Origin: Bacillota bacterium
Lineage (GTDB): Bacteria > Bacillota > Clostridia > Oscillospirales > Oscillospiraceae
NCBI GenBank assembly: GCA_028719885.1
Contig: JAQYLT010000012.1
Span: 26,702-90,701, forward strand
Direction: 5' to 3'
DNA: 64,000 nt
Shown here: positions 6,674 to 23,364 of the stretch, one piece after another
How the letters are laid out: each line of letters starts with the position of its first letter
Numbering within the stretch: position 1 is the first letter of the stretch
Translations under genes and position numbers: made by a program
Notes under the pieces: model-generated
What the model was told of the DNA's origin: nothing
Seen by the model: only the letters and a program-made list of their open reading frames with translations
Database searches by the model: none

Positions 6674-6931
6674 TTATTTGGTCTTGGGAACCTGATAGGT
6701 CATGGCGTTTTCACTGTCGGACAGGCCGGCGGTGGTGGGGTCGTTGACGATGCCCAGAATGGTCAGCACCGTGAACAGCTGATTTACCACCGCCAGCGTC
6801 CGGTTGCCCGCCTCCCCCAAATCCAGGTTGATGCCGAACATGGCCGCGCCGCTCTGCACCAGCAGCAAAACCGCGGGAATCAGGGCGGCCCAAAAGGCCC
6901 GGTTCCGAATTCTTACTTTCCAGTTGATCAT
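6674..6931 (-). CDS. holin (phi-LC3-type)
   Basis: 85 aa. Starts MINWKVRIRNRAFWAALIPAVLLLVQ, has two TM segments, and is the last gene of the lysis cassette. Confidence 0.8.
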   Translation of the reverse strand: MINWKVRIRNRAFWAALIPAVLLLVQSGAAMFGINLDLGEAGNRTLAVVNQLFTVLTILGIVNDPTTAGLSDSENAMTYQVPKTK

Positions 6932-7152
6932 TGCTTTCCTCCTCCATGCTCCAGGTCGGACAGCCGGTGGTTGATGACCCGAATCTGTTCCTCCACCACC
7001 GGCATTCTTCTTGCGAAGCCGTTGTGCTCCCGGACCTCCCGGGTCAGTTCATCCAGCTTTGTCTCGGTGACGGCCTGGCTTTTCCCGTTGGCAATCAGCA
7101 CCCCCAGCAGGGTCAGGCTGCCGGTGATGATTGCAGTGATGATGCTCTCCAT
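6928..7152 (-). CDS. BhlA/UviB-like holin-type small membrane protein
   Basis: 74 aa with an N-terminal TM helix followed by a coiled coil. Overlaps the holin start by 4 nt. Confidence 0.6.
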   Translation of the reverse strand: MESIITAIITGSLTLLGVLIANGKSQAVTETKLDELTREVREHNGFARRMPVVEEQIRVINHRLSDLEHGGGKQ

Positions 7153-7161
7153 AAATTCCTC

Positions 7162-7713
7162 CTATCTGTTTCCGGGCGGGATGTCAAAATGTACATTGGT
7201 GCTGTTGATGCGGTAGCTGTACCGGTGTCCCGGCTGGCTGGCCACAAACTGCCGCAGAGTTTCGCTGTCCACCCCGTCAACCCGCAAATCAACGGCCTCT
7301 CCATACATGTGCTGGCTGTTTCCAACACCGCCTTGGATTGCGTTCCACTTCTGGCAGCGCAGGCCGGAGATCACGTGGGCGGGTTTTCCGAAATGGGCCC
7401 GGGCGGCGTCGGCGATTTTGACCACGGCCTCCTGCATTTCCGCCGGGTAGCCGTTGCAGTATCTGCCTCCGCATTTGCATTTAAATTCATCCCGGCGAAA
7501 ATGCTTGATATCGTCCCACCAGTCTCCGGACTGTGGTTTGTCCAGCTTCGCAATCGTCCCGGCCACCGCACCAACCATGCCCTCAACGCCAACTCCGTAG
7601 TCTGCCTGGAACGCAGCCAGAGCAGCCTGGGTCTTTTTGCCGTCGATGCCGTCAATCGGGCCAGGGTCATACCCAAGATAGGCCAGCAGGCATTGGGTTT
7701 GCTTTGCCGTCAT
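7162..7713 (-). CDS. endolysin: PG-binding domain + peptidase M15 (VanY-like zinc D,D/L,D-peptidase)
   Basis: N-terminal PG_binding_1-like repeat (GPIDGIDGKKTQAAL). C-terminal SQHMYGEAVD...VHFD metal ligands. Confidence 0.85.
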   Translation of the reverse strand: MTAKQTQCLLAYLGYDPGPIDGIDGKKTQAALAAFQADYGVGVEGMVGAVAGTIAKLDKPQSGDWWDDIKHFRRDEFKCKCGGRYCNGYPAEMQEAVVKIADAARAHFGKPAHVISGLRCQKWNAIQGGVGNSQHMYGEAVDLRVDGVDSETLRQFVASQPGHRYSYRINSTNVHFDIPPGNR

Positions 7714-7730
7714 AGAAATCCCCCCTTTCG

Positions 7731-9782
7731 TCAGCCGTTCATTGTGGCCAGAAGCGTTTCCACCGCTGCCTCGTCCAGATAATCGTTGTACACCCGGAAA
7801 TCATCCAGAATTCCGCTGACGGTGTTGTATTCCCCGCCGCCCTCTTCCCGGCCGAAGAGGTACAGCGGCTCGGCGTGCAGGTGGTCCTCCGTCACCTGAT
7901 AGCCCAGGGAACAGTTATAGGCCAGGGCGCCGTCCAGGTAGAACCAGTAGTTTCCGCCCTGCTTGGCAATCACCGCCGTGTGATAGCCGTCGGTTGGCTC
8001 CGTGTATCCCGAATTGTTGTCAAAGGGGAAATTGAAGCCGCCGAAGCCTCCGGCGAAATTGTAGACCATTGTTCCGTCCGCCTGGGGAAGCAGCCTCAAA
8101 TAAGCGGCAGTCTGGGTGGAATCGTCGCTGAAATACTTCCGGGTTTCAAACACGCAGCCAATGGTGCCGTCAGAAACCACCATGTCCTCGCTGAACCGGC
8201 AGGCAATGGTCCAGTCCTTTTCCGTGTCATAGAGGCAGACCTGGGTATTCACCGCACTACCGGTGCCGGTCATGGGCCCGGTGAGCTTAAAGGCAAAGGC
8301 GCCGAATTCATCCGTTCCGTCGGTTTCGTAGCCCAGCTCCGGTTCCTTATTTCCTGCCTCTGTTCCAATCAGCTCCTCCAGCCGCTCCGTCACCAGCTTT
8401 CCGATGGCCTTGTAGCCGTAGCAGGAGAAGTGCAGGGAATCGAAGCTTTCCTCCCCGTTTCCGCCGCAGGAGTACATCAGCAGGGGGACATTCTTCTTGA
8501 TCTCATCCGTGGTGGCCCAGCCGGAGGTGTCCGGCACTCCGGCGCTGGCGGCGATTCCGGCCAGGGAATATCCCCGCCTTTGCAGCAGCGGCGGCAGGTA
8601 GAGCAGATGACACACGCCCTGTTCGTCGGTGAGGGCCTTTTGGATGCTGTTGGCGTCCTCCAGCACCCACTGGCTTGTGTATTCCCTGGCCACGATGACC
8701 AGGTAGTTGCTGTAGTTTCCGTAGGCAACCATCTGCTTGATTTTTTCGATGTATGCCCCGTGGGAGCTCACCGACCCGTTGGTTCCCATCCAGATCACGG
8801 CCACTCCGTTCCGGTAGCGGCGCATGGCGTTGGTTTCAATCATGGACTTCTCCGGCACCTGCACCGCCTCTCCGCTTTGAAGCCGCCGGAACCGGTAGGC
8901 GTAACGCCCGCTTTCATCCTTGACCATGTCCCGGAACAGCTCGCCCTCCACCCCGGCCAGGACGCAGGGGTTGATGCCCGCCTCGTTCTCGGCCAGGGGC
9001 TGCGCCAGGTCGCCGGATTTGGTTTCGATGCCCATGCGGTCGTCGGAATAGTAGTTTCCCCGGAGATAGCCCACGATCACATCCTCCGAGGCATCCGCCG
9101 GGATGGTGAAGCCGCCCACCACCATGGGGTCCGCGCCCTGCCTGGCCATGATGGTCTGAATGGTCTCCCCCCGGCAACCCAGATTTACGCAGGGGAAGCG
9201 CTGGGCAACCATGTCCGGATAGGCGCAGACGATGGCGTTCTGGATTCCATCCTGGGTGGGCAACCAGCCCCCCACACCCTCGGTGAGGGAATCCCCCCAG
9301 CAGTACACCGTGGGGACGTTTTCCCCGGTGCTGCCCCCGGTTCCCTGCTGGATTTTTTGGAGTACTTCCTCCGCCGCTTTCAGCCGGAGCAGCATTTCCT
9401 CCACCGTTCCGGGGGCGGGCTGGGCGCCCTCCGGCCCGTCGCACTGGGCAACCGAGGGCTTTACCATGCCGCAGGAGGCCCAGTTGGTGGGAATCCGCAG
9501 CTTGCCCGATGCATCCCAGCCATCCAGTCCGCATTCCAGCCGCTGCCCCGCAATCAGGCATTCCTGGGGCAGACATACCGGCCCGTCCCCATCCAGGGAG
9601 ACAATGCGGCTCACCTCTCCACAGCGCACCTTCAGGGTCTTGCTCAGGCCCTCCCATTCTTCGTCCCATTCTGCCGTAACCGGGATGCCCACCATTCCGT
9701 GAGTGATCTGCCCCTCCACCCTCGCCCTGGCCATGGCTCCCTTGCAAAAGATTGTAATGCTTGTCATGTATTCACGCTCCAT
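7731..9782 (-). CDS. tail fibre/spike protein with central SGNH (GDSL) hydrolase and C-terminal LamG/concanavalin-like domain
   Basis: GDSL block YCWGDSLTEGVGG. The C-terminus (LDDFRVYNDYL) is typical of laminin-G-like lectin folds. Start taken at the ATG 5 nt after the upstream stop; 9767 and 9806 are alternatives. Confidence 0.7.
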   Translation of the reverse strand: MEREYMTSITIFCKGAMARARVEGQITHGMVGIPVTAEWDEEWEGLSKTLKVRCGEVSRIVSLDGDGPVCLPQECLIAGQRLECGLDGWDASGKLRIPTNWASCGMVKPSVAQCDGPEGAQPAPGTVEEMLLRLKAAEEVLQKIQQGTGGSTGENVPTVYCWGDSLTEGVGGWLPTQDGIQNAIVCAYPDMVAQRFPCVNLGCRGETIQTIMARQGADPMVVGGFTIPADASEDVIVGYLRGNYYSDDRMGIETKSGDLAQPLAENEAGINPCVLAGVEGELFRDMVKDESGRYAYRFRRLQSGEAVQVPEKSMIETNAMRRYRNGVAVIWMGTNGSVSSHGAYIEKIKQMVAYGNYSNYLVIVAREYTSQWVLEDANSIQKALTDEQGVCHLLYLPPLLQRRGYSLAGIAASAGVPDTSGWATTDEIKKNVPLLMYSCGGNGEESFDSLHFSCYGYKAIGKLVTERLEELIGTEAGNKEPELGYETDGTDEFGAFAFKLTGPMTGTGSAVNTQVCLYDTEKDWTIACRFSEDMVVSDGTIGCVFETRKYFSDDSTQTAAYLRLLPQADGTMVYNFAGGFGGFNFPFDNNSGYTEPTDGYHTAVIAKQGGNYWFYLDGALAYNCSLGYQVTEDHLHAEPLYLFGREEGGGEYNTVSGILDDFRVYNDYLDEAAVETLLATMNG

Positions 9783-9787
9783 TCTCC

Positions 9788-11506
9788 TTACTCCACCCGT
9801 TTCCACATATAAACTGCCAGATAGGGCGGCATGTTGTTGTGGGCGGCATCTGCTCCCACTCCACCGGTGCTCCCCGGGGGATAGCTTTCGCCGGAGGCCA
9901 GCAGAAAGGTGTCCGCAATCCGCTCCCAGGTGCCGCCGAAGAGGCTGTCCGGCGGCGTGTCGGTGACGGAGATGTAGATGCTGCCCACGGGATAAACCCG
10001 GCTGATCACCCGGTCCACATAGGCCTTGGTGGCCGCATCCTGCTCATTGGTTGGGTCGGCCATGTTCCCGATGGCGCATTCGTTCATGTCCGTGTCCACA
10101 CCGATGCTCAGCTTTTGGGCATTCTTGGCCCGCATGCCGATGCCCACGGCCTTGGTGCTCCGGCACAGGTCCACCAGAACAAAGGCCACATTCACCAAAG
10201 CGGTTTGGCTCGTCACCTTGTTGTAATCATCCTGGACAATTACCTGGCATTCATAGGCGGTATCCTGTCCCGCGCTCATGATGAAGCTGCCGCCCTGCAC
10301 GCTGCTTTGGCTCAAATACTCCAGCAAGGTAACCTTTCTCTGCTCTTCTCCGTTGTGGACGGTGCACACCCCATAGTAGAAGATCAGCTTGTTGTAGTCC
10401 TTGTTTGCCTCCGCATCAAACACCACTTTCAGATATTCGCCGTCCGGCTGTGGCTCCCCCTGCTCATCGCAGCGGAAGGCCTCCCGGATGGTGACGCTTG
10501 GCTTCTGGTAGGGCTGCACCTGGATGATCTTTTCGTGTTTTGCAATTCTGCCCCGGCTGTCGGTCGCCGTAACGGTGATGGGGATGCTTCCGCAGTCGTC
10601 CATGGCAAATATCACCTGGTCTCCGCTGCCGGTCATCTTCCCGCAGCGCACCTGGATGTCCTGGATGGTGGAGCCGTAGATACCCTCCGCCGTGCTCTGG
10701 ACAACAATTTTGCTGATGGACTGGACATAGGCGTTGTATTCCTGCCAGATTCCTGTTTTGTCCGACACCCAGACCAGCAGGATTGGCACAACATCCTCCG
10801 GAATCTGGCAGATTATCTCCTTTTCCCGTGTGCCCACCTGAGTATCCCCCCGATAGGTGGTCACCGTCAGCACGATGGAAACCTTGGTGTCCTGGGTCTG
10901 CTGCTCTGCCAGCTCTATTGGTGGGGTCCATTCCAGCTCCGTCTGCTCCGTTTTTTCCGCAATGGTCCCCTCCAGGCTGCCGCAGCGCCAGCTCAGGGTG
11001 TCGGTAAAGCCGCTTGCCTCCCGGGTGATGCGAATGGTCAGCGGCTGGCCCAGCGTTCCATCCTCCGCCTCCAGCTGGGAGACCCGGGGGATGGCTGGCA
11101 GATAGGGGTAGACGGTTTTGTTGATGCCATAGTCCAGTGGTGCCTGATTGTAGTAGACGAACAGGTTGGCGTATACCGCGATCTGGGCGGTGCCGTCCTC
11201 CTGGTGGTTGACGGTGATGTTTTTGGTGCTGAAGCCGGAGAACCAGCTGTCTCCCTCTCCGCCGCCGGAGTAGTTCTTGGTCATGTCCACGGCGCAGCCG
11301 GTGGTGTCGGTGAGGGCAAGGGTTGCCGCCTGATTTCCGTTGATGGAAATGGTTCCCTTGATGTAGCAGCTCAGGTTCATGCTGGCAAGAGAACGCATTT
11401 CCACCCTCGTCACCCTCACCACCGACCGGTTCAGCTGGATATCCTGGGTGACCTTGTAGGTGATCCGCGCCCCAAAGGAGCTGCCAATGATTTCACAACT
11501 AGGCAT
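9788..11506 (-). CDS. tail/receptor-binding structural protein
   Basis: 572 aa. The C-terminal motif YPVGSIYISV...FGGTWERI recurs in phage fibre/baseplate proteins. SD GGAGGGAAGC precedes the ATG. Confidence 0.6.
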   Translation of the reverse strand: MPSCEIIGSSFGARITYKVTQDIQLNRSVVRVTRVEMRSLASMNLSCYIKGTISINGNQAATLALTDTTGCAVDMTKNYSGGGEGDSWFSGFSTKNITVNHQEDGTAQIAVYANLFVYYNQAPLDYGINKTVYPYLPAIPRVSQLEAEDGTLGQPLTIRITREASGFTDTLSWRCGSLEGTIAEKTEQTELEWTPPIELAEQQTQDTKVSIVLTVTTYRGDTQVGTREKEIICQIPEDVVPILLVWVSDKTGIWQEYNAYVQSISKIVVQSTAEGIYGSTIQDIQVRCGKMTGSGDQVIFAMDDCGSIPITVTATDSRGRIAKHEKIIQVQPYQKPSVTIREAFRCDEQGEPQPDGEYLKVVFDAEANKDYNKLIFYYGVCTVHNGEEQRKVTLLEYLSQSSVQGGSFIMSAGQDTAYECQVIVQDDYNKVTSQTALVNVAFVLVDLCRSTKAVGIGMRAKNAQKLSIGVDTDMNECAIGNMADPTNEQDAATKAYVDRVISRVYPVGSIYISVTDTPPDSLFGGTWERIADTFLLASGESYPPGSTGGVGADAAHNNMPPYLAVYMWKRVE

Positions 11507-11518
11507 GCTTCCCTCCTG

Positions 11519-12265
11519 TTACTTCCCCATGCTCTTGAACAGGGAAGACAGCAGGGAGCTGTTCTTCTTGGTTCCCGTCTGCTCCTCGGTCTTCTTCTTG
11601 CCGGAGGTGACGTAAACCGTCTGCACGGCAGAGGCGGCCGGGTGGGAGGCGGCCCACTGCTGGTTGTAGCGGCGCCGGTTCTCGTCGAACTCCTGCTGCC
11701 ATTTCCAGTCGGCGATTTCGTCCCGATAGGCGTTGTAGTCGGTGTCCCGGGCGTCGGTGTAGATGTTCCACAGCTGGTCAGCCTCCTTCTGCCAGGCGGC
11801 CAGGGCGTCCTGGTAGCGGCCGTATTCCTGCTGCTGGGCCCCGGAGAGCAGGTCGTATTTCTGCTGCAGGCTCTGGGTTTGCAGCCGGTATTGGTTCATT
11901 GCCAGGTTGTAAAGCTCCGGGATCCGGTCCGCCAGGCTGTCCAGCTGCCGGCTGTAGGCCTGCTGGCCTGCGGCCTGGGCGTAGGAATTGCCGTAGCCCC
12001 CGGTGAGGGCTGCCGCCTGCCCCATGGTGTCCGCCATGGCCAGTCTTCCGTTTTGGATGGCTGCGTTCCGGTATTGCCGGTAGAGGGCGTCCCCGTCCAG
12101 GTTGTAGTGAAAATCCTCCCGGTTCAGAATCCGGTCCATCACCTGCTTCAAGGAGGTCTCATAGGCGGAGGTATATTCCCCCGGCTTCGTCTTTTTTTGC
12201 TCCTGCATGGCCGCCTCCGCGTCCAAAACCTTTTGGGAGGCGGTGTATTCCTTTTTTTCTGCCAT
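11519..12265 (-). CDS. phage structural-module protein, function unknown (Q/Y-rich, coiled coil)
   Basis: 248-aa ORF in the operon with good coding periodicity. No recognisable motif. Confidence 0.55.
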   Translation of the reverse strand: MAEKKEYTASQKVLDAEAAMQEQKKTKPGEYTSAYETSLKQVMDRILNREDFHYNLDGDALYRQYRNAAIQNGRLAMADTMGQAAALTGGYGNSYAQAAGQQAYSRQLDSLADRIPELYNLAMNQYRLQTQSLQQKYDLLSGAQQQEYGRYQDALAAWQKEADQLWNIYTDARDTDYNAYRDEIADWKWQQEFDENRRRYNQQWAASHPAASAVQTVYVTSGKKKTEEQTGTKKNSSLLSSLFKSMGK

Positions 12266-12279
12266 TTATACTCCTTTCT

Positions 12280-13017
12280 TCATCGGATGCTCAGGTGGCC
12301 GTCCACCCCCTGCTCAAAGATATAGTCACCCAGCTGGAGCCATCCTACCTGGGCGCGGTCCGTCTGAATGGATGACGCCGTGACGGCAGTGACGTACAGC
12401 CGCCGGTCGCTGATGTAGGCCACCTCCACATCGTTGCTGTCGAAAAAGGACAGCCTGGAGGCGGTGAGCCGGGTGAATTTGCGGAAGCGAATCACCCCGT
12501 CCTCCCATTCCTGCTGGCCGATTTCCACACCGTAGATGTCCGCTCCGTCCGGTCCCTGGGTCAGCAGGCCGGTGCGGATGGTGGCGTTCACCTCCACCAT
12601 GGACGACTTCAATTCCGCCACTGCCGCTTCCAGCTGCTGGATATTGGAAAATTTCTGCTGAATGCTCTGGGCGTTGGCGGTGATGCGCTGCTCCGTCTCC
12701 TGACGGAACACCCCGAATTGGGACTGGGCTACATAGGAGCCGGAAAGGCTTTTCTCCACCTGCTGCTGAAAATGCTGGGTGATTTCGGCGCTTTTCAGAA
12801 TCAGGGCTTTTACGGCGGCGAAATCCACCGCTGGATTCTCCTGCCCACTGCTGGGGCTGTCCGCCTGCTGCTTGGAAGAATCAGATTGCTGGGTGACGGT
12901 ATCAAAGGCAATTTGCAGCTGCTGGGCCAGGGTGTACAGGTAGCTCTGCATCCGGCGCAGCTGCTCCTGGGTTGTGCCGCCGGAGAGCTCCGGCAGGCGA
13001 AGCTCCACCGCCGTCAA
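12280..13017 (-). CDS. phage structural-module protein, function unknown
   Basis: 245-aa ORF. Its start overlaps the upstream gene's stop by 4 nt. Confidence 0.55.
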   Translation of the reverse strand: MTAVELRLPELSGGTTQEQLRRMQSYLYTLAQQLQIAFDTVTQQSDSSKQQADSPSSGQENPAVDFAAVKALILKSAEITQHFQQQVEKSLSGSYVAQSQFGVFRQETEQRITANAQSIQQKFSNIQQLEAAVAELKSSMVEVNATIRTGLLTQGPDGADIYGVEIGQQEWEDGVIRFRKFTRLTASRLSFFDSNDVEVAYISDRRLYVTAVTASSIQTDRAQVGWLQLGDYIFEQGVDGHLSIR

Positions 13018-14744
13018 AACACATCGCTCCCTTCCTCCAGGGTTTTGGTCAGGTCATACAGCCGCATTTCCCCGGTGCCCTCCAGCCGCAGCCGGAGATG
13101 GTCGCACCGGCGTACCGCCACGGGGATGGTGACGGAGCCCAGGGGACCGGGATGAATCTCCGCCAGGGAGTGCCACAGCGGTTCCTCGTCATACCGGACG
13201 GAGAGCTTCAGGGAGGCCCCGGGAGCCAGATACAGCCGCAGGGTCAGCCGGGACAGATGCTTGTTGTCCGGGCTTTCCGTGGCCATGACGCCGGTTTCCG
13301 CCAGGTAGTGAAAATCCCCCTCCGGCTCGCCCTCGCCGGTGACGCTGATGATCTGCCCCTCCCCGTCCAGAAAATACAGGCTGTTCCGGCAGCTGCAAAA
13401 GCATGTTGCCCTGGCGCCGTCCTCCCGGTGCCAGAGTCCTTTTTCCGTGTCGTAGACAAAGAGGTGGCTCTGGCCTTCGTCATCGGCCATGGAGATGTAG
13501 TATTTTCCCCGGAGGGCCCCAGCCGCTGCCTGGGAAAAGTGCCCGGTGCCCAGTGGCCGGGAAACCTCCGTGGGCAGGGCTCCGTCGTAGGCACACACGC
13601 CGGTGGGGGATTTGTAAAACAGGGTCTCCCCCACAATGGCCAGGCTCTCCTGGCTGCCCTGCTGCACCCCCCGGCAGGGGGTGGTTTGCAGCCGGTAGCT
13701 GGCGGGATAATTGCCGTAGATTTTGTGCAGGCAGTTTTCCCGGAAAAACAGGGGGTAGCCCATGTGCTGAATTGCCCCGGTGAAAGGCCCCTCCGCCCCC
13801 AGGCTCACCTGGTAGCTGTCGGTGGAGATGCCCTGGAAGCAGTACCAGTTTTTGAAATCCCCCAGCTTGCTGGCGTAGATTTCGTTGACGATTTCCCCCT
13901 GGCTGTTGGGGCCGTAGCGGCAGCCCCAGAGCCGGTTTTCGCATTCGATGACAAAGTCCATGATGGGCAGCTTTCGGCTGAGGGTGATGGGGATGTCCCA
14001 GAGGATTTCCCCCTCCAGCAGTCCGGGCACCACCAGGTAGTCAGTGTCCCGGGCGGTGATGACGCATTGGGACGCCACCGCCTCCGGGGCTCCCGTGATG
14101 GAAATTCCATCCCCCTCCCGGAAGGCGGCGCCGATGCCGGGATGGGAGAGCCGGAGGTAGGTTTTCTCCACGCTCACCCACATCCCGGAGCCCTGGGACC
14201 ACTGCAGCAGCACCGGCGGCTGCTGGGAGGTGTCCAGCCAGAGGGCCATGTTGGCCGGGTTCTGGGGCTCCTCCGGCTGGCTGTAGGCAGGCAGCAGCGC
14301 TTCTCCGTCGGATGTGGCGGGGGTGAGGGTCACGGTGCCCTCGGTGGTAAATTCCGCCTCCAAATTGCCGAAATCCGTGAGGTTCAGGGTGTTGATGTAC
14401 TTTTTATCCGGGAAGATGATCACATAGGCCCCCATGGAAACCAGCCTTTTGGGGCAGTCCGCCTCTCGCTCCGACAGGCCCATTTCCACTTCGTACCCAT
14501 TCACCACGAATTTGGAGCCGTCCACCCAGCAAAGGCTGTCCCGGGCGATGAGCCCCTGGGCGTTGGCCGGATGCCGGTATACGCCCCGCTTTTTCCGGGT
14601 GGCGAGCAAGGGATAGTGGTCGGAGCTCATGTTCTCCATGGCGGCAAATTCCCCGGGATTGATGCGGCAGCCTGCGTGATAGCCCCCGAACACCGACAGG
14701 GTCTCCCGGCTGGCGGGCAGGGCGCTGAGGGTTGGAAAGTGCAT
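13014..14744 (-). CDS. large virion/tail protein, function unknown
   Basis: 576 aa counted from the ATG at 14744, which is preceded by AGGAGGGG. The ORF-track start at 14822 overlaps the upstream gene. Confidence 0.6.
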   Translation of the reverse strand: MHFPTLSALPASRETLSVFGGYHAGCRINPGEFAAMENMSSDHYPLLATRKKRGVYRHPANAQGLIARDSLCWVDGSKFVVNGYEVEMGLSEREADCPKRLVSMGAYVIIFPDKKYINTLNLTDFGNLEAEFTTEGTVTLTPATSDGEALLPAYSQPEEPQNPANMALWLDTSQQPPVLLQWSQGSGMWVSVEKTYLRLSHPGIGAAFREGDGISITGAPEAVASQCVITARDTDYLVVPGLLEGEILWDIPITLSRKLPIMDFVIECENRLWGCRYGPNSQGEIVNEIYASKLGDFKNWYCFQGISTDSYQVSLGAEGPFTGAIQHMGYPLFFRENCLHKIYGNYPASYRLQTTPCRGVQQGSQESLAIVGETLFYKSPTGVCAYDGALPTEVSRPLGTGHFSQAAAGALRGKYYISMADDEGQSHLFVYDTEKGLWHREDGARATCFCSCRNSLYFLDGEGQIISVTGEGEPEGDFHYLAETGVMATESPDNKHLSRLTLRLYLAPGASLKLSVRYDEEPLWHSLAEIHPGPLGSVTIPVAVRRCDHLRLRLEGTGEMRLYDLTKTLEEGSDVF

Positions 14745-15778: not shown

Positions 15779-16795
15779 TTAGTTCATCTTGGCGCTGGGG
15801 GAGAAGGCGCTGCAGCACTCCACCCGGTACATGTAGGCCTGCTGGAGAATCTCCGCCGTCTGCATGGCCTTCCAGCCCACGGTGCTGCGCTGGTTCAGGG
15901 GGTCGGCGGTACCGGCGGAGCCCAGCTGCTTGATGATGGTTTCCAGGCCGCCGCCGGTGACCTCGGTGACACCGTAGGCGCCGTTGGCAATGAACAGACA
16001 GCCGAATACCGCGAGACCCGCGGGGCAGTCGTTCTCCGTACCGGTGTAAACCGCCGCCTCGGAGGTCTCGATGAAGCGGACACCGGCAATCCGGCCGATC
16101 TCGCCCTCAAACTGATTCTCGGGCTTGCAGTACTTGTGCATTTCCTCCCAGCGGGGGTCGCTCATGATGTCATAGGCCACATAGGGATGGAGGATGCACA
16201 CATAGTCTCCACCGAACTTGGGGGCGTTGCTGGCCTTCAGCATGGCCGCCACCTTTTTCACCACATCCACGGTGAGCACGCAGGTGCCGTCCAGCTGGGA
16301 GCGGTCGGAGACGGGGGTGGTCTTGCCATCGGCGGCAATCTTGGGGCAGTAGTACACGTTGGTGCCGGACTGGAGCACATTCCGGGTGATGGTGTCCAGG
16401 GTCAGGCCCGCCTGATGGCCCACGGCCCGGGTGGCTTCCAGCACGTTGTTGTCGATGGCGGTGAGGTCCAGCACATCAGACAGGCACACATAGTCGCCGT
16501 ACTGACGCACCTCCGCCTCCACTGCCACGGCGGTCATCTTCCGGCCGTCGGGGGTCACGCCTTCGGTCAGGGGCTGGGTGGCCTTGGGCAGGGCGGCGTA
16601 GCGGCGGAATTCAATCCGCTTGCCGCCGTTTTTGGGGATGGGCCGCTTCTGGCCAAACTGCATGTGAATCAGGTTGGGGCTGGCCTCCTCCAAAAGGGCC
16701 CGGTCGTAAAAGGTCTTGTTCTCCACGGAGAGACCGGGATCGGTGGTCACGTTCACGTTCTCGGCAAAAAACTGCAGATTCATTTTCTTTTCCAT
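15779..16795 (-). CDS. major capsid protein with Prp-type N-terminal propeptide
   Basis: 338 aa, positioned after the scaffold gene. The N-terminus MEKKMNLQFFA|E matches the L27/Prp cleavage motif. Confidence 0.8.
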   Translation of the reverse strand: MEKKMNLQFFAENVNVTTDPGLSVENKTFYDRALLEEASPNLIHMQFGQKRPIPKNGGKRIEFRRYAALPKATQPLTEGVTPDGRKMTAVAVEAEVRQYGDYVCLSDVLDLTAIDNNVLEATRAVGHQAGLTLDTITRNVLQSGTNVYYCPKIAADGKTTPVSDRSQLDGTCVLTVDVVKKVAAMLKASNAPKFGGDYVCILHPYVAYDIMSDPRWEEMHKYCKPENQFEGEIGRIAGVRFIETSEAAVYTGTENDCPAGLAVFGCLFIANGAYGVTEVTGGGLETIIKQLGSAGTADPLNQRSTVGWKAMQTAEILQQAYMYRVECCSAFSPSAKMN

Positions 16796-16859
16796 ATCAT
16801 TTCTCCTTCTTGTGTGATGTACTAATTGGTTTAATTGTGCTTTTGCTAACGAACAATTC

Positions 16860-17088
16860 GTAGGGAATGCATTTATGCATTCCGCCTGGGTAATGGTTTT
16901 GCGCCGGTGCGTTGAATCGAAAAATGTTGATTCTTTCCGTAGGGAACGGATTTATCCGTTCCGATTCCTTTGTTGTTTCAAAATCGGTTGGATAAATGGT
17001 AAAACGTCGATAATATGTTCCCCCAGATGCCACTCAACAAGCTACGATGATCATCGAACCTTTCGGAAGGTCTGAATCCGTTCCCTAC
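16860..17088. repeat. second copy of the composite GTAGGG-hairpin element, inside the phage head operon
   Basis: Units at 16860-16883 and 16939-16962 are identical to those at 6257-6280 and 6335-6358. A degenerate reverse unit lies at 17065-17088. Spacers are homologous to the 6257-6560 element. Confidence 0.85.
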
Positions 17089-17154
17089 GCACACGACTGG
17101 CTGATATTAATTAACTTAACGCCCCTTTCCCTCATGAACGATTCTTCCTCTTAC

Positions 17155-17703
17155 TTATCCGAAGCTCACCCGCTCCCCCCTTTCCACCATCCGGCAGTAT
17201 TTGTCGTAGTCCTGCCGGGTCATTTGGGTGACATTCCTGCCCACCAGAGCCGCCGCGCCGCTGTCCAGGCCGTTTTCACCGGGACGGTAGCTTCCGCTTC
17301 GCAGAGCGGCGGACAGCCTTGCCTCCACGGCCTTTGCCGCGTACTCCATGGCCGCCGGAAGAATCTGTCCGGCGTGGATGGCCTGGTAGGCGCTGGAAAT
17401 GTCCACACCGGCCAGCAGCATCCCGGCAAAGCGGCGGTCCGACAGCTCCTTTCGGATGTCGAAGTCGGGGAAAAGCTGCTTCAGCTGCTCCCCCTGGGCC
17501 ATCCAATCGTTGTAGATGCGGTCCACCCGCTGCCAGTGCTCAAGCACAAGAGGGTCCTGCCGGTCTTCCGGCGTCTCTGCCCGGGCTGCTTCCTCCGCCT
17601 GCTGCTCCAGCAGGCCGGCAGCCTCCTCCCCCTGGGCCGGAGCGTCTCCCTCTGCGCTGCCCTCCGCCCCCTGGGCGAAAAGCTGTAACCATGTGTTTTT
17701 CAT
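17155..17703 (-). CDS. capsid scaffolding protein with Prp-type N-terminal propeptide
   Basis: 182 aa counted from the ATG at 17703. Acidic N-terminal half, and MKNTWLQLFA|Q resembles the Prp site. Lies between the Prp and capsid genes. Confidence 0.7.
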   Translation of the reverse strand: MKNTWLQLFAQGAEGSAEGDAPAQGEEAAGLLEQQAEEAARAETPEDRQDPLVLEHWQRVDRIYNDWMAQGEQLKQLFPDFDIRKELSDRRFAGMLLAGVDISSAYQAIHAGQILPAAMEYAAKAVEARLSAALRSGSYRPGENGLDSGAAALVGRNVTQMTRQDYDKYCRMVERGERVSFG

Positions 17704-17723: not shown

Positions 17724-18065
17724 TTAAAATCGCAGGGCTTCCTCCAGGGTGACATTCCCCGGGAAACTGGCGGCCAGCTCGGCAATGCCGTTCTGCACCG
17801 TCCAGAACACCATAGCCACCTCCTTCCGAAAGGGCTCCTTCGGTGCGGCGATGATCTCCGCGTTTCCCTCGTACAGCTCCACCCTGGGGCAGCGCCGGAG
17901 CATCCCCTGGAAATACAGCCGCTCCACCGCCCGGGCCAGGGTCTCCGTCAGGGCGCTCACCCCGGCGCATACCAGATCCTGCCCCTTGGGCCCCGCGCCG
18001 GCGTGGCCCTGGGCCTTCATATGCAGGCTGCCGTCGGCGCTGCAATAGAATTTGGAAAGAATCAT
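17724..18065 (-). CDS. prp: Prp-family cysteine protease (ribosomal-processing protease homologue, phage-encoded)
   Basis: 113 aa carrying the GHAG...GQDLVCAGVSAL His/Cys dyad signature of YsxB/Prp (DUF464). Confidence 0.8.
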   Translation of the reverse strand: MILSKFYCSADGSLHMKAQGHAGAGPKGQDLVCAGVSALTETLARAVERLYFQGMLRRCPRVELYEGNAEIIAAPKEPFRKEVAMVFWTVQNGIAELAASFPGNVTLEEALRF

Positions 18066-18078
18066 TCCATCACCTCTC

Positions 18079-19863
18079 CTACACCGGCTTGGTGGACTCC
18101 GCCACCCGCTGCCGGGCGCTTCGGGCGGCGTAGTGCTCCTGCTTTTCTTTGGGCGCCTTGGGGGAGGTGTACTTGCGGGCGGGTGCTTCCGCCTCCGGCC
18201 GCTGCGGCTGCTCCAGCTCCAGCATAGAAAGCGTCAGCTGATACTGCTGGGCATTCTTGGCGATCTGCTGCATCACCATCTCTTTCCGGTCGAAATCCAT
18301 CATGTCCATGCACAGTAGAGCCTGCTGGGCGTTCCGGGGGTCGAAGAAACCGGCGGAGTAGAATTGCAGGGCCATCTCGTTCTGGCTCATCCGGGAGTAG
18401 GCGCTCTGCTTCTGGGCGGATACGGTGATGTCGAACAGGGGCACCCGGCTGCCCAGGGGAATTCCCATCTGGCTTCCCTGATCCCGGGGCAGCAGCCCGG
18501 CGTTGGAGTATTGGACGAATTCCGCCGCGCCCTGCTCACCCATGATCCGGAAGCACCGGGGCAGGGTGTAGAACTGACGGATGAGCTCGATGACCATGAG
18601 GCACAGCTTCCGGAAGGCACGGTAGGCGGCCTTGTTGCTGTCCCGGCTGAGCTTGCTGCCCGCCTCCTGCATGGCGGCGATGGCGGAGGCCGCGGTGACG
18701 CCGCTGGAGGTGCCGCCGGTGGAAATGTCCCGGTTGCCGGTGACCTCTTTCAGCTCGTCCACCTTGCTGTTGAGCACTGCCAGGTATACCTCGCTGAGGC
18801 CGGTGCTCTGAATGGGCAGAATGCTGTCCTGGCCCAATCCGCCCTCCACGTGGACGAAATCCCGGGTCAGATCCCCGTATTCCTCCTCGTTCACGCTTCC
18901 GTCACTGCGGATGAAGTGCCGGGGCCGGGCGTTTACCAGCAGGTTCATCAAAATGGCCTGGTTGCCCCGGTCGATGTACTCCTGGGCGCTTTTGGCCACA
19001 TCGATGTAGCCGAAGCCGCAGGGGGTGCCCGCCATGCGGAACAGGGGATCGAACACAAAGGGATACAGCCCGTGGTCGTACCAGCCCCGCTGGGCGTATT
19101 CCGGCTCGTTCTCCGTGGCGAAGAGCACCTGGTCACCCACATATTTGCAGTAGTGCAGAATGCTCCGGCCGCCCTGCTGCTTTTTGTAGTACCAGTCCAC
19201 CACGGCGGATTTGTCGGTGGTGTCCACACGGTCGTCATAGAGGTACTTGCTGCCCACCGGCTCGCTGGGAGGACCGGCAAATTTGTGGGCCAGCTGGGGA
19301 TACTGCTCCTGCAGCACCTGGTTGCTTACCAGCTGGATGTGGAATACGTTGGCAGACTGCTGAATGTCCGTGATGCCGCTCTCCCAGAAGAGATTCAGAA
19401 TGTCCACCTTTTTGATGGCCACATCCCCCAAGCCGCCGGAGCCGTTGGGGTCCCAGAACACGCCGTAGATGCCGGTGCCGGCCTTGAGCTTGTAGTCGTT
19501 CACCTCGTCGTAGACCTGCTCGAATTCGCTCTGCTCCAGCACCACCGGGAGGATGGAGCCCAGCAGCTTGGCCTCCCCACGGTCACCCTCCTCCCGGGGC
19601 AGCACATTGGGGCTGGGGTAATTGTCCATCACGTCGGCGTGCTTGCTGGCGATGGCGTTAAAGAGCCAGCCGGAGGTGGGCTCCACCTGATTTTTTCCAT
19701 GGCCCCGCATACATTCCCAGTGGCGCAGCTTGTACCACTGTTCGTTGTCCACCACCCGGCGCTCCAGATTGGCCTTGCCCTCCTTGTAGCGGTTCAGAAT
19801 CACCTGGGCCCGGCGAATCTGCTCCTGGCCGATAACCGGCTGCATTGCTTCTTGTTTAATCAT
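18079..19863 (-). CDS. portal protein
   Basis: 594 aa, immediately downstream of and overlapping the large terminase gene. Acidic/basic C-terminal tail typical of portals. Confidence 0.85.
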   Translation of the reverse strand: MIKQEAMQPVIGQEQIRRAQVILNRYKEGKANLERRVVDNEQWYKLRHWECMRGHGKNQVEPTSGWLFNAIASKHADVMDNYPSPNVLPREEGDRGEAKLLGSILPVVLEQSEFEQVYDEVNDYKLKAGTGIYGVFWDPNGSGGLGDVAIKKVDILNLFWESGITDIQQSANVFHIQLVSNQVLQEQYPQLAHKFAGPPSEPVGSKYLYDDRVDTTDKSAVVDWYYKKQQGGRSILHYCKYVGDQVLFATENEPEYAQRGWYDHGLYPFVFDPLFRMAGTPCGFGYIDVAKSAQEYIDRGNQAILMNLLVNARPRHFIRSDGSVNEEEYGDLTRDFVHVEGGLGQDSILPIQSTGLSEVYLAVLNSKVDELKEVTGNRDISTGGTSSGVTAASAIAAMQEAGSKLSRDSNKAAYRAFRKLCLMVIELIRQFYTLPRCFRIMGEQGAAEFVQYSNAGLLPRDQGSQMGIPLGSRVPLFDITVSAQKQSAYSRMSQNEMALQFYSAGFFDPRNAQQALLCMDMMDFDRKEMVMQQIAKNAQQYQLTLSMLELEQPQRPEAEAPARKYTSPKAPKEKQEHYAARSARQRVAESTKPV

Positions 19864-21277
19864 TGATAATCTCCATTCCCGGCCGCTTTTGGGCCGCTTT
19901 GATTTGTTCCCTGGGGATATCCAGGAAGAGCTTCAGGGGGGAATTGTCGTAGCCGTCCCCGGTGGGCTTGGACCGGGGCTTGATGGGCCTGGACATGCAG
20001 AAGTAGCGCACCTCGTCGGCCACATGGTCCTCTCCGTCGGTGTCCACATCCTCGGCGTTTGCGCTGTCGTATTGCAGCAGAGGCATGGTGCGGATGAAGG
20101 CGCGGCAGTTTTTGAATACATACAGCATGGAATAGCCTTCTTCGTCCATACTCAGCCGGTAGTGCACCTGCATCCATCCCGGCAGCCGCTTGTGATCTCC
20201 CGGCTGGAAGTACACCTGATGCCGGGCGGCGGTCTGTGCGATGCTCTCGCCGGTCTCGGCGTCCCAGATGGCCGGGTCGGCGATGCCCTGAATCCGCTTT
20301 CCCGCCAGCCACCGGTGCTCGGTTTCAATCTGCCGGATTTTGGAGAAGACCTGGTCCGGGGTCCAGCGTACCCCCTCGTTGGGGGTGGCGGTGCAGCCGT
20401 AGAGCTCCAAAATCCGGTAGGCCACCCCGTCATAATCCACCGCCCACCAGCCGCAGGAAAAGGGACGGTGATAGCCCCAGTCGAAGCTGCGGTAGATTTT
20501 CCAGGTATCGGGGATCTCAAAGGGCTCGATCACATGGGTGAACCGCCGGTCCCGGTAGTGCTCCGGACGGTCGTAAAAATCCTCGAAGAACTGGCCCTCG
20601 TATACGTCCCACCGGCCCTCCAGCCAGGCCTGGCGGAGCTTGGGGGGCAGCTTCTCCAGGGAGCGCATGTATTCCGGCTGCCGCTCCATCAGAGCGTGGT
20701 TGTCGGTGCACAGGGCCTGGATGAAGGCGTAGTCCTCCGGGTATTCCTCCGGGGTAAACCGCCGGTCGATGAAAAGCCGCTTGAAGTAGCCGTGGCTGGG
20801 ACCGCCGGGATTCAGGGTGTAGTAGGTGCGCTTGGGGAAATCGTTGGTGCCCCGGACGCAGGCGTCGATCTGGGTCAGCCAGTTCTCCTGAAACTGGCCC
20901 GCCTCGTCGGCAAACCAGATGTCGTATTCCGCCCCCTGGTATTGGCCCAGGTCGTCGTCCCCGTCGCAGTAGCCGAAGCTGATGGTGCTGCCGTTGGGGA
21001 AGTAGAAGATTTTGTCCCCCTTGTTGTAGTTGGCTGCCCCCGCCAGCAGGGCCTGCAGGGGGGCGATGTGGTTGTTGTACAGCTCCCGGTAGGTCCGCCG
21101 GGTGATGAGGACCTTGATTCCCGGAAATTTCAGGCACAGCAGCACCGCTTTCCATCTTACAAACCAGCTTTTTCCGCCGCCTCTGGCCCCGCCGTAGCCC
21201 ACATACCGGTGAGTTTCCATCAGAGCCTGGCGCTGCTTGGGATTGGGCCGGGGCATCACAAGCACCTTACCCGGCAT
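19856..21277 (-). CDS. terL: terminase large subunit
   Basis: 473 aa. Walker A YGGARGGGKSW with a C-terminal nuclease region containing acidic residues. Confidence 0.9.
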   Translation of the reverse strand: MPGKVLVMPRPNPKQRQALMETHRYVGYGGARGGGKSWFVRWKAVLLCLKFPGIKVLITRRTYRELYNNHIAPLQALLAGAANYNKGDKIFYFPNGSTISFGYCDGDDDLGQYQGAEYDIWFADEAGQFQENWLTQIDACVRGTNDFPKRTYYTLNPGGPSHGYFKRLFIDRRFTPEEYPEDYAFIQALCTDNHALMERQPEYMRSLEKLPPKLRQAWLEGRWDVYEGQFFEDFYDRPEHYRDRRFTHVIEPFEIPDTWKIYRSFDWGYHRPFSCGWWAVDYDGVAYRILELYGCTATPNEGVRWTPDQVFSKIRQIETEHRWLAGKRIQGIADPAIWDAETGESIAQTAARHQVYFQPGDHKRLPGWMQVHYRLSMDEEGYSMLYVFKNCRAFIRTMPLLQYDSANAEDVDTDGEDHVADEVRYFCMSRPIKPRSKPTGDGYDNSPLKLFLDIPREQIKAAQKRPGMEIIND

Positions 21278-21638
21278 AGCTTTCCGCCTCCCCCTCCAGA
21301 ATCACGGTGATGCCCTCCGCCTCCGGCACCCGGTTCAGCTCCTGCTCCAGTTTTTGCAGCTTCATCTCCCGCTCCCGGGCATCCAAAGAGCCATCCCGGG
21401 AGAGAATGTCCTGCAAATCCTTTAATACGCCCGTGAGCTGCTTTAACCCCGCCCGATCCACAATTCCCTTGCGCTTGGCCTTGATCAGCTCCCAGGTTTC
21501 CTCTCCATCCTCGGTTTTTCGCTTCTCCCGGAGGAGCACCGTCCCCTTGTCCAGCTCCTCCACTGCCTGCTCCAGCCGGTCCAGCAGCCGCTGCGCCGCC
21601 AGCTGTACCCGGTCCAGGCCCGTTTTTGCCTCCTCCAC
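21267..21638 (-). CDS. putative small terminase/packaging accessory protein (assignment by position only)
   Basis: 123-aa charged coiled-coil protein overlapping the terL start by 11 nt. Confidence 0.4.
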   Translation of the reverse strand: MEEAKTGLDRVQLAAQRLLDRLEQAVEELDKGTVLLREKRKTEDGEETWELIKAKRKGIVDRAGLKQLTGVLKDLQDILSRDGSLDAREREMKLQKLEQELNRVPEAEGITVILEGEAESYAG

Positions 21639-21656
21639 CGTTTTCCCTCCTTTCCT

Positions 21657-21896
21657 CTAATCGATTTCCACCATTCTGTCTTTGACGCAGTCCGGGCACA
21701 GGGGGCTGCCGTCCTCCAAGGGGAAATACCGCTCCCCGGCGATGTGCCTGCCGCAGTCGACGCACTTTGGACGGCCCAGCAGCCAGCGGTCCGACCTGGC
21801 GGCAATCCGCTCCGCCTGCAGCCAGGGCTCGTCAACCACGGCTCCGTCCCTCCCCCCGGCCGGAGGAATCCCCCCGCCCGGCATATCCTTTTTCAT
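21657..21896 (-). CDS. small zinc-ribbon protein, first gene of the late operon
   Basis: 79 aa with CVDCG...CPDC. Confidence 0.5.
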   Translation of the reverse strand: MKKDMPGGGIPPAGGRDGAVVDEPWLQAERIAARSDRWLLGRPKCVDCGRHIAGERYFPLEDGSPLCPDCVKDRMVEID

Positions 21897-22258
21897 TTTG
21901 CTTCATTTCAGCTCCTTTCTGTCCGTTTTATTGGACACGATTCGTGGTATACTTTTTGTGAAAATTCTCATATTACAGTTGAAATTTCCATACTCCTGTG
22001 GTAAAATCCTTTTAAGACGGATGACTCCGGTGGCAATTGGAAAACATCCAGTCTTAAAATGGAAGATGCAGTTCACTTAAATTCACTGTAAGTGCATTAT
22101 AATGCTATAAAGTTTATTTGTCAAGGGACAATAGCATATAATTTTGAACTTACGGAATATTTGGTAAACTGTCATAAAACCACCATGGAAAACCCGGTGA
22201 AATTTCCCTGTTCACGCAGCAGTTTTCACAAAGGGTTTCCGGTCAGGGAGTGTCAACT

Positions 22259-22930
22259 ATGTTTTATGATCGTTTTGTTGCCTTGTGTGCCCAGCGGGGA
22301 GAAACCCCCTCCCGGGCTGCTTTGAATGCGGGCATCAGTAAAGCCATTGTGTCCAAATGGAAGCAGAACCCTGCCGCCTTCCCCTCCGGGCCGGTGGCGG
22401 AGAAGCTGGCAAACTATTTTGGAATCACCATCCCGGAGCTCATTGACGAGAGCCTGGATGTTACCCAGTGCCTGCCCGGCTCCGTCCCCGTGTCGGTAAA
22501 CCCCAATAGTCCTGCCGCTCAAGGCAGGACTCTGGCCCAGTCGGAGGAAGAGGAGCCAGAGGAAAAGCCCGAGGAAAATCCGGAAACCTTCTATGATCGG
22601 CTGGCCCGCATCTCCCGGAGCTATGGCATGAGCCCCTCCCGGGCGGCCCTGGCTGCCGGGGTGAGCAAATCCGCCGTGTCCAAATGGAAGCGGGAGCCGG
22701 ACGCCGTCCCCTCGGGCACGGTGCTGTCCAAGCTGGCCGCCTATTTCGGCATCTCCGCTTCGGAGCTGCTGGGGGAGAGCAAACCCGCCGCCCCGGAAGT
22801 TTCCGAGGAGGACATCAAATTCGCCCTGTTCGGGGGCAGCGAGGACATCACCCAGGAAATGTATGACGAAGTGCGCTCTTTTGCCGCATTTGTAAAGGAA
22901 AGGGAGGCAAATAAGCGCGGAAAGGAGTGA
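22259..22930 (+). CDS. ImmR/XRE-type repressor with two tandem HTH domains
   Basis: The segment FYDRF..SRAALNAGISKAIVSKWK...KLANYFGITIPELI is repeated as FYDRL..SRAALAAGVSKSAVSKWK...KLAAYFGISASELL. An acidic linker joins the two copies. Confidence 0.8.
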   Translation: MFYDRFVALCAQRGETPSRAALNAGISKAIVSKWKQNPAAFPSGPVAEKLANYFGITIPELIDESLDVTQCLPGSVPVSVNPNSPAAQGRTLAQSEEEEPEEKPEENPETFYDRLARISRSYGMSPSRAALAAGVSKSAVSKWKREPDAVPSGTVLSKLAAYFGISASELLGESKPAAPEVSEEDIKFALFGGSEDITQEMYDEVRSFAAFVKEREANKRGKE

Positions 22931-23364
22931 AAATGATTCTTCTACCGGAGCTTTATGCCACAGCCTCCCAGCAGAATATCCCGATTTATTCCTATCCCAT
23001 GGCCCAGTGCGGCTCCATGTCCGTCCAGCTGCAGGACGGCAGCTGCGCCATTGGCATGGATGACCGGGTGGCCGACGGCGGCGCTCAGGAGCGGGTGCAC
23101 CTGGGCCACGAGCTGGGCCACTGCCTCACCGGCAGCTTCTATAACATCTACGCCGCCGCGGACCTGCGGCAGCGGCATGAAAACCGGGCGGACAAATGGG
23201 CCATCCGGCGGCTGATTCCCGTGTCCGCCCTGGATGATGCCATCGCCGCGGGCCACACCGAGCTTTGGGACTTGGCGGAGTTTTTCGGTGTGACGGAATC
23301 CTTTTTAAAGAAGGCCATCTGCCTCTATGTCCATGGCAATACTGCCAGTGAGCTCTATTTTTAA
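22927..23364 (+). CDS. ImmA/IrrE-family zinc metallopeptidase (antirepressor protease)
   Basis: 145 aa with HELGH. Overlaps the repressor stop by 4 nt. Confidence 0.8.
   Translation: MKMILLPELYATASQQNIPIYSYPMAQCGSMSVQLQDGSCAIGMDDRVADGGAQERVHLGHELGHCLTGSFYNIYAAADLRQRHENRADKWAIRRLIPVSALDDAIAAGHTELWDLAEFFGVTESFLKKAICLYVHGNTASELYF

Follow-up and report, generated by a model that had tools for sequence, protein, structure and literature searches.

Why would a chromosome keep a seemingly complete set of phage head, short-tail and lysis genes with nothing beside them to integrate or replicate a phage? The question is raised by a 16.7-kb locus at positions 6674–23364 of the window, a 64,000-nucleotide stretch of contig JAQYLT010000012.1 that was analyzed as a whole and belongs to the chromosome of a gut Oscillospiraceae bacterium of the Faecousia type. 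An earlier note on this DNA had proposed a host-retained particle producer rather than a decaying prophage. We find this proposal supported by relatives with the same reduced layout, by constraint on the genes, by a small terminase subunit (TerS) without a helix-turn-helix (HTH) and by a gene order like that of FpGTA, the gene transfer agent (GTA) of Faecalibacterium prausnitzii. With a probability of about 0.68, the locus derives from a temperate podovirus lineage, is fixed in the chromosome and not autonomous, and is retained by the host as a particle producer, either an FpGTA-like GTA or a close functional analogue.

The head, short-tail and lysis genes form one minus-strand operon running from 21896 down to 6674, as delimited by open reading frame (ORF) listing, translation and a gene call based on third-position GC content (GC3). 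An ImmR/ImmA pair on the plus strand diverges from it. Genes were assigned with Pfam, PHROG and NCBIfam profiles, and the host flanks were examined in the same way. All genes named in the earlier note, from the Zn-ribbon gene through the lysis genes and ImmR/ImmA, were recovered where it had placed them. From its 5′ end, the operon encodes:

21657..21896, minus strand: 79-aa Zn-ribbon protein, first gene of the operon (CxxC...CxxC motif, weak zf-dskA_traR match)
21267..21638, minus strand: predicted HTH-less TerS, 123 aa, directly upstream of TerL, whose start it overlaps by 11 nt
19856..21277, minus strand: large terminase subunit, TerL, 473 aa (Pfam Terminase_6N and Terminase_3, phrog_2)
18079..19863, minus strand: P22/SU10-like portal, 594 aa (Pfam P22_portal 97.6 bits, phrog_156)
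17724..18065, minus strand: Prp-type cysteine protease (Pfam Peptidase_Prp 50.7 bits)
17155..17703, minus strand: scaffolding protein, 182 aa (phrog_13908)
15779..16795, minus strand: major capsid protein of the N4-gp56 family, 338 aa (TIGR04387 278 bits, cut-off 60; phrog_1357)
15106..15333, minus strand: 75-aa virion-module protein, p75, position kept in all relatives (phrog_15239); possibly a head–tail joining or decoration protein
14756..15103, minus strand: 115-aa virion-module protein, position kept in relatives (phrog_12105); from position only, a probable head–tail adaptor
13014..14744, minus strand: predicted tail nozzle/hub, 576 aa (AlphaFold2 (AF2) and Foldseek, phrog_511)
12280..13017, minus strand: 245-aa coiled-coil virion protein with a C-terminal beta domain (no PDB or Pfam match)
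11519..12265, minus strand: 248-aa Q/A/E-rich protein, p248, conserved in relatives (no PDB match)
9788..11506, minus strand: DUF859 and Gp10_C fiber/baseplate-type protein, 572 aa (DUF859 128.6 bits, Gp10_C 46 bits, phrog_372)
7731..9782, minus strand: SGNH-hydrolase and concanavalin/Laminin_G_3 tail protein, ~683 aa (Laminin_G_3 30.6 bits, PHROG tail/tail-fiber families)
7162..7713, minus strand: endolysin (PG_binding_1 and Peptidase_M15_3)
6928..7152, minus strand: 74-aa membrane/coiled-coil protein between endolysin and holin, a putative lysis accessory (phrog_1863, no function assigned)
6674..6931, minus strand: holin, last gene of the operon (Phage_holin_1, 97.5 bits)

Host genes enclose the locus: the housekeeping genes asd, aspartokinase, hom, thrC and thrB on the left and, on the right, three tRNA genes followed by tatA, a flavoprotein gene and tatC. 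The right-hand boundary marker is:

23495..23750, plus strand: tRNA-Gly(tcc), tRNA-Arg(tct) and tRNA-His(gtg)

Between the end of immA and tRNA-Gly (23495) lie 130 bp of non-coding DNA, the distance reported before, with no int in the interval. Pfam and PHROG searches of the called ORFs, the antisense ORFs and the flanks found no integrase, recombinase, excision or replication family, and no tape-measure, tube or sheath family was detected among the ORFs of the locus, so that the absences listed in the earlier note held up. The locus thus has two general traits of GTAs: chromosomal phage-like structural, packaging and lysis genes lie between host flanks, and genes for its own replication, integration and excision are absent, as they are from its relatives. 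Because it has no such genes, it cannot amplify or move itself. An Rfam scan of 6000–24500 returned the three tRNAs only, no flanking direct repeats or att-like sequences were found around the element, and megablast of the locus against the INPHARED phages gave a single 457-bp match, to an unannotated virome contig.

Several other explanations of this arrangement were rejected. Ten long antisense ORFs, typical of high-GC DNA, had zero Pfam matches, which speaks against hidden genes on the opposite strand. Integration at a tRNA gene is contradicted by the position of the element 5′ of tRNA-Gly, and by the missing direct repeats; the variable island with 188-nt repeats follows tRNA-His, at the opposite end of the cluster. 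Insertion at dif through Xer recombinases is at odds with a cumulative GC skew that is monotonic across the window. A capsid-forming satellite, similar to capsid-forming phage-inducible chromosomal islands (cf-PICI), does not agree with the presence of nozzle, fiber, endolysin and holin genes and the absence of integrase and replication genes.

By homology, the 123-aa product of the second gene is a small terminase minus its N-terminal DNA-binding HTH. It is 48% identical (E = 3e-30) to residues 69–186 of a 187-aa TerS encoded at the same position in related elements, and the full-length equivalents, of 187 aa and of 154–206 aa, match phrog_1206 ‘terminase small subunit’ as well as HTH_psq in their first ~55 residues. 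Upstream of the start codon of the 123-aa gene the frame stays open for six codons only, and the HTH is therefore absent from the window’s TerS. Because an AF2 model of this protein gave no informative structural match in Foldseek, its identity rests on homology to full-length TerS and on gene position. The short form (115–130 aa) occurs in ~120 homologues, down to 51% identity. A missing N-terminal DNA-binding domain has been proposed as the defining trait of GTA-type TerS (PMC6854486), and the TerS of this locus has that trait.

The same layout, free of integrase and replication genes, is present in >20 Faecousia/Oscillospiraceae genomes and metagenome contigs. A single scan of species-representative genomes yielded 17 Faecousia/Oscillospiraceae loci with the same gene order, and the contigs L060–L063 (L numbers are our labels for related loci and contigs) and contigs from IMG/VR share it. 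The earlier note had regarded close relatives with integrase and replication modules at variable sites as the sign of a recent deletion; the closest relatives, at least 20 with capsids 79–98% identical, all lack both modules. The interval from ImmR to TerL is at most ~1.5 kb in 11 loci, and no int follows immA in any relative examined. The ORFs adjoining ten of the loci are ordinary host genes, the visible neighbors in species-level genomes being RimP, MetN, P-type ATPase, PTS EIIA, GH3, ECF S-component, DegV, HlyD and FHA/VWA. Like most of its relatives, the window’s locus is contiguous. A 12.4-kb element of the same design, the P0105-type (L003–L008), has an identical capsid protein on >1000 contigs and occupies one fixed site in six independent samples. 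The capsid of the window’s locus has >8000 close database homologues and 3916 clusters at 50% identity. The P0105-type elements encode a holin with an 86-aa partner and a full-length, HTH-containing TerS, and have no recognizable endolysin or SGNH fiber.

Within the species, the chromosomal position is fixed, and it is shared with three related species. In no fewer than five independent same-species samples (L049–L053), contigs encoding the identical 123-aa TerS have the tRNA Gly-Arg-His cluster next to the element; the sister species L017 shows this arrangement too, and the thrB side is common to L028 and the asd side to L018. A thrB exact-protein look-up aimed at empty sites gave no result. 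Synonymous divergence (dS) of the element is close to that of the host flank, with 0.48 for capsid and 0.71 for portal against 0.54 for thrB and 0.55 for thrC in L028, and 0.41 for capsid against 0.40 for asd in L018. Relative to L017, at a dS of ~0.2, the ratio of nonsynonymous to synonymous divergence (dN/dS) is 0.02–0.22 for all 12 shared genes (TerL 0.03, capsid 0.05, ImmA 0.08, TerS 0.09). The receptor-binding genes (DUF859 and SGNH/lectin) are the fastest-evolving and most variable parts. Every gene has dN/dS <1, and no orthologue contains a stop or frameshift; frameshifted structural genes, which the earlier note had named as a point that would count against it, were not seen. Its description of intact, translationally coupled ORFs also agrees with overlaps at 21267–21277, 19856–19863, 13014–13017 and 6928–6931, which are compatible with such coupling. 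Diverged yet intact reduced loci, low dN/dS and a shared site together exclude a recent deletion and are in keeping with a long shared history of element and host.

What separates the locus from a full phage is visible in the uncultured Oscillospiraceae podophages L057–L059, which share the module from TerL to p248 at 25–71% identity (TerL 68%, portal 71% in L057, capsid ~61–64%, nozzle 51%), together with the Prp gene and its cleavage motifs. Unlike the window’s locus, these phages carry SSB, a Lin1244_N protein, a DUF927 primase-helicase and a 3131-aa MuF_C polyvalent protein, and they have a full-length TerS with an HTH and a scaffold of 346 aa, twice the length of that in the window. Residues 55–181 of the window’s scaffold align to residues 220–346 of the L057 protein, so that ~165 central residues are missing; the Prp site at the N-terminus and the last 127 residues are retained. 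Speculatively, such a shortened scaffold is consistent with a smaller head. The cleavage-type motifs (MEKKMNLQFF/A in capsid and MKNTWLQLF/A in scaffold, the slash marking the cleavage point) resemble the L27-type motif and are conserved across relatives; by analogy with the known Prp of Firmicutes and phage 80alpha, the protease presumably trims the N-terminal propeptides of both proteins. In phage relatives, giant MuF_C proteins of 2685–3131 aa directly follow the p248 homologue (L057, 17471–21047; L001, 13404–21461), and the phage relatives L046 and L048 add VRR-NUC and ArdC genes.

The fold predicted for the 576-aa protein bears on the type of particle. Its AF2 model is moderate, built on a 26-sequence alignment with a predicted local distance difference test score (pLDDT) of 60. 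Foldseek matched it, each time with probability 1.00, to the tail of phage E1004 (2e-10) and to P22 gp10 (8eap_D, 3e-9); further matches were Pa223, the PhiM1 nozzle, HRP29, T7 gp12 and SU10. The template-modeling score (TM-score) against 8eap is low (0.33–0.40) because the model is only moderate. These podovirus nozzle/hub matches indicate that the particle is short-tailed and lend weight to the podovirus-type particle proposed before.

FpGTA (PMC12946183; Nat Commun 2026;17:2046; bioRxiv 2024.11.15.623857), which its authors describe as the first podovirus-like GTA, was shown experimentally to form podovirus-like particles of ~40 nm with random host fragments of 8.4–8.9 kb (PMC12946183). Its operon I encodes a TerS without DNA-binding domain, TerL, portal, Prp, an N4-gp56-family capsid, a nozzle (8eap homologue) and an abundant protein annotated as ‘TolA’, and operon II a BppU-like fiber, an upper fiber, a receptor-binding protein (RBP), an SGNH hydrolase, a holin and an endolysin (PMC12946183). 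The gene set of the window’s locus is collinear with this one: TerS, TerL, portal, Prp/scaffold, capsid, two further genes, nozzle, one further gene and ‘TolA’ are followed by fiber, SGNH and lysis genes. In a comparison of annotations only, the order in the window is the accession order RCH50852 to RCH50844 and RCH48794 to RCH48797. Both loci have an N4-gp56-family capsid, a Prp and a P22-like portal, the FpGTA proteins RCH50849, RCH50850 and RCH50851 bearing the same names; the capsids fall in the same NCBI family, and 8eap is the PDB homologue of both nozzles. By position, p248 is the counterpart of the abundant ‘TolA’-annotated particle protein; it is probably internal or ejected. Neither locus has integrase or replication genes, and both are found in gut Oscillospirales. 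They differ in that FpGTA is split into two operons ~125 kb apart in a Ruminococcaceae host, whereas the window has one contiguous 16.7-kb locus in Oscillospiraceae/Faecousia with a divergent ImmR/ImmA switch added, and in that the ‘upper fiber’ and sialidase-like RBP of FpGTA have no obvious counterpart in the window. Our representative-library search and cluster look-ups returned no Faecalibacterium entries. A podovirus-like GTA having been published, our interpretation is no longer new in kind; what is added here is a series of TerS truncation and scaffold shortening and a very wide distribution.

Better-known systems share parts of this design. RcGTA of Rhodobacter capsulatus and other alphaproteobacterial GTAs are likewise domesticated structural clusters without replication or integration genes, with a TerS that lacks the N-terminal DNA-binding domain (PMC6854486), lysis-dependent release and purifying selection, but they are siphovirus-like, with tape measure and tube, scattered accessory loci and unrelated structural proteins. 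PBSX of Bacillus subtilis is also a defective prophage of Firmicutes with an Xre-family repressor, probable stress induction, its own lysis cassette and no self-propagation, and the window’s TerL matches the PBSX-family terminase model weakly (68 bits, below the cut-off). PBSX differs in its contractile myovirus tail, its killer particle, its 28-kb size and its capsid and portal families.

Control of the operon appears to lie with the divergent pair and the signals around it:

22250..22930, plus strand: ImmR-like repressor, 226 aa, with two Cro/C1-type HTH (Pfam HTH_3 and HTH_26, PHROG repressor families)
22927..23364, plus strand: ImmA-like M78 (IrrE-type) metalloprotease, overlapping immR by 4 nt (Peptidase_M78 26 bits; phrog_87 E = 7e-21)
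22096..22124, minus strand: sigma-70 promoter of the structural operon (TTGACA-17-TATAAT, 12/12 consensus positions)
21979..22007, plus strand: immR promoter-like site, facing the operon promoter
6634..6665, no strand assigned: bidirectional terminator closing the operon and thrB (13-bp-stem hairpin, T-runs on both strands)

As in the ICEBs1/phi105 module, a divergent HTH repressor and a co-transcribed M78 protein, presumed to be the anti-repressor, stand at the element’s end beside a tRNA cluster; in that module int follows immA, whereas none does here, and the window’s ImmR has a duplicated HTH. The duplication is internal, a 148-nt direct repeat (22306–22453 and 22633–22780) that is 71% identical. 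Distant relatives (L028–L032 and the P0105-type) encode a 124-aa ImmR with a single HTH.

In the mechanism that we propose, ImmR would repress the consensus promoter at 22124–22096 until a stress or DNA-damage signal led the ImmA protease to inactivate it as in ICEBs1, a step suggested by the protein families. The single 15.5-kb operon would then be transcribed, Prp would trim the capsid and scaffold propeptides, and the short scaffold and N4-gp56-type capsid would assemble on the P22-like portal. TerL and the HTH-less TerS may package any available DNA by a headful mechanism; adaptor, nozzle, DUF859 fiber and SGNH/lectin proteins would finish the short tail, and the holin and M15 endolysin would lyse the producer cell. 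We infer that DNA is packaged at random, that head capacity is below the length of the locus and that DNA is delivered to recipients.

Several observations weigh against a host-retained GTA. The fixed position and purifying selection that the earlier note had linked to domestication hold within the species and for L017, L028 and L018, with dN/dS <1, but in species further removed its surroundings on the chromosome are of at least eight other kinds. The family as a whole may thus not have descended strictly vertically, and the different surroundings could instead mean some form of mobility. Intact ORFs and purifying selection would also be expected of an active phage. In L028, which shares the thrB site, and in the P0105-type elements, TerS still has its HTH, and integrase and replication genes are missing all the same, so the reduced state does not require loss of the HTH. 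Heads holding at least 17 kb could let the locus package itself. RcGTA is controlled by the host through CtrA/GafA and quorum sensing, whereas the window has a phage-type ImmR/ImmA switch. The match with FpGTA is one of annotation, family and fold.

How, then, do the alternatives fare? An inert, decaying prophage remnant, its integrase and replication genes recently lost and its structural genes not yet degraded, would explain the missing genes, the repeats inserted into spacers and the two contigs (L049 and L060) without half the locus. We consider it very unlikely, as >20 diverged loci keep the same reduced layout with every ORF intact and dN/dS of 0.02–0.6, the consensus promoter, terminator and gene overlaps are all kept, and replication-bearing relatives are only ~61–64% identical in capsid; the breakpoints of L049 and L060 lie inside dispersed repeats and may be assembly artefacts. 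The locus might instead be a self-transmissible minimalist podophage or a helper-dependent element that packages its own ~17-kb genome and relies on host recombination or a helper to enter new sites. Its size is compatible with a small podovirus genome, related elements occupy at least nine chromosomal contexts across species, homologous loci were assembled from faecal viromes enriched for virus-like particles (VLPs), and the P0105-type and L028 retain an HTH-containing TerS. That such an element is at work here is nonetheless unlikely, given a TerS without its DNA-recognition domain, ends without direct repeats or att-like sequences, an identical site in all same-species contigs and the sister species, and like dS of element and flank; moreover, the virome contig L002 has host genes beside the cluster, which is compatible with host DNA in particles or contamination, and the homologous-looking FpGTA packages 8.4–8.9 kb of random DNA (PMC12946183).

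A related idea, that the family is a new class of selfish ‘structure-only’ element moving between sites without integrase or replicase, would account for the at least nine chromosomal contexts and for repeat-mediated splitting of the locus. Self- or half-packaging combined with homologous or repeat-mediated host recombination could provide the route, as could functions borrowed from resident phages, but we hold this doubtful. Finally, particle production could have been selected for a role other than transfer, with DNA packaging incidental to a PBSX-like killer or a programmed-lysis device, a possibility left open by the FpGTA authors (PMC12946183). The logic of PBSX is shared (an Xre-type repressor and a defective prophage, with random 13-kb DNA and no delivery), and DUF859 and SGNH/lectin are the most variable proteins, as strain targeting would predict. 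Set against this, TerL, TerS and portal are the most constrained, at dN/dS of 0.03–0.09, and packaging itself therefore seems to matter. Killing by tail puncture is a trait of contractile and flexible tailocins and is not known from short-tailed capsid particles, and we accord the killer or lysis role a small chance.

Should the favored interpretation, a host-retained FpGTA-like particle producer, be confirmed, podovirus-like GTAs would be present not only in Faecalibacterium but also in Faecousia and other Oscillospiraceae and, because the capsid family is very large, could be among the most widespread gene-exchange devices of the human and animal gut. GTA-type packaging (~5.9 kb) was noted in an Oscillospiraceae metagenome-assembled genome in which the FpGTA study did not find the gene cluster (PMC12946183), and the locus offers a concrete candidate type for those genes. 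Its relatives form a graded series, from full phage through elements without integrase or replication genes that keep an HTH-containing TerS to those with an HTH-less TerS and a shortened scaffold. The last two stages are found at the same chromosomal site and amount to a natural experiment on the change from phage to GTA, on packaging specificity and on head size.

Among the remaining structural and lysis genes, several labels could be refined. Of the four large structural proteins for which profile searches had been suggested, the 576-aa protein was assigned as the nozzle and the 572-aa protein as a DUF859 protein, and those of 245 and 248 aa remained without matches; sequence and profile searches of all four against the PDB gave nothing significant. 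The 245-aa protein follows the nozzle in all relatives, phages included, the Zn-ribbon gene is kept upstream of TerS, and the 74-aa gene is kept beside the holin. Two holin-type genes had been described; the gene at 6674–6931 is indeed a holin, but the 74-aa gene matches only an unnamed PHROG. The reported SGNH fiber is present, with its SGNH label resting on a sub-threshold GDSL_2 match and a GDSLTEG motif. It is a candidate receptor-binding protein or depolymerase, and its gene is variable or missing among relatives.

Repeats have entered several spacers in and beside the operon:

16796..17154, no strand assigned: scaffold–capsid spacer, 359 bp, with GTAGGG hairpins at 16857–17094 that resemble repetitive extragenic palindromes and bacterial interspersed mosaic elements (REP/BIME-like)
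6252..6566, no strand assigned: left thrB–element junction, with four REP/BIME-like GTAGGG hairpins
15334..15778, no strand assigned: capsid–p75 spacer, 445 nt, a repeat-derived insert (fold z = -3.9 versus shuffled)

In each REP/BIME-like unit an imperfect palindrome comes after a GTAGGG head (for example, CGTAGGGAATGCATTTATGCATTCC), and the units occur in inverted pairs. The GTAGGG repeats noted earlier in the head module thus sit in the scaffold–capsid spacer, as described, but are better classed as REP/BIME-like and extend to the left junction. In L017 the scaffold–capsid spacer measures only ~114 bp. Colonization of spacers by host REP-like repeats is a sign of long residence. Such repeats also occupy the asd–aspartokinase spacer (1056–1200), and L017, the sister species, has short spacers at these places. 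The structured 445-bp insert of the earlier note is the capsid–p75 spacer, which folds better than shuffled sequence and has no match in Rfam. Its length in L017 is ~90 bp, and in the same-species contigs L013 and L010 it holds a different repeat-derived insert. Across the family this spacer is an insertion hot spot.

Incomplete or rearranged loci were seen on two contigs. In L049, homology to the window ends from 14638, inside the scaffold–capsid REP cluster (window position 16995), and the contig continues into GGDEF and sulfatase genes, host genes unrelated to the locus; this half-locus is a possible deletion variant or chimera. From the p75 gene to past the holin, L060 and L061 are 99.9% identical, but upstream of ~8800–9160 L061 has the head half of the element and L060 has dnaA-dnaN. 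The switch point lies inside a ~250-nt dispersed repeat that is also present in other spacers, and L060 is either a chimera produced in assembly or a true repeat-mediated split that left the locus at two sites, like FpGTA. Both contigs encode a large serine recombinase (Resolvase, Recombinase and Zn_ribbon_recom; 20995–21716) ~4.2 kb beyond the holin; because SpoIIP, deaminase and EF-G-like genes lie between, it probably belongs to another element. In L002 (MT835662.1, 1–10100), a contig assembled from faecal virome DNA enriched for VLPs, a related cluster that likewise has neither integrase nor replication genes is followed by ordinary host genes for a ZIP transporter, a C1 peptidase-lectin and an M23/G5/LysM protein, which fits either host DNA in particles or contamination.

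On the far side of the tRNA cluster, a 12.1-kb block (23749–36040) is bounded by 188-nt direct repeats that are 84% identical, the first starting from the 3′ end of tRNA-His. It contains tatA, an FAD/FMN flavoprotein gene, tatC and genes for an aldo-keto reductase, TetR, hypB/hypA, a GltD-like oxidoreductase, a low-molecular-weight (LMW) phosphatase and DUF5714; no integrase was found among them. L017 and the same-species contig L051 lack the block, and L049 and L050 have a C11 peptidase in its place; it looks like a variable island at tRNA-His.

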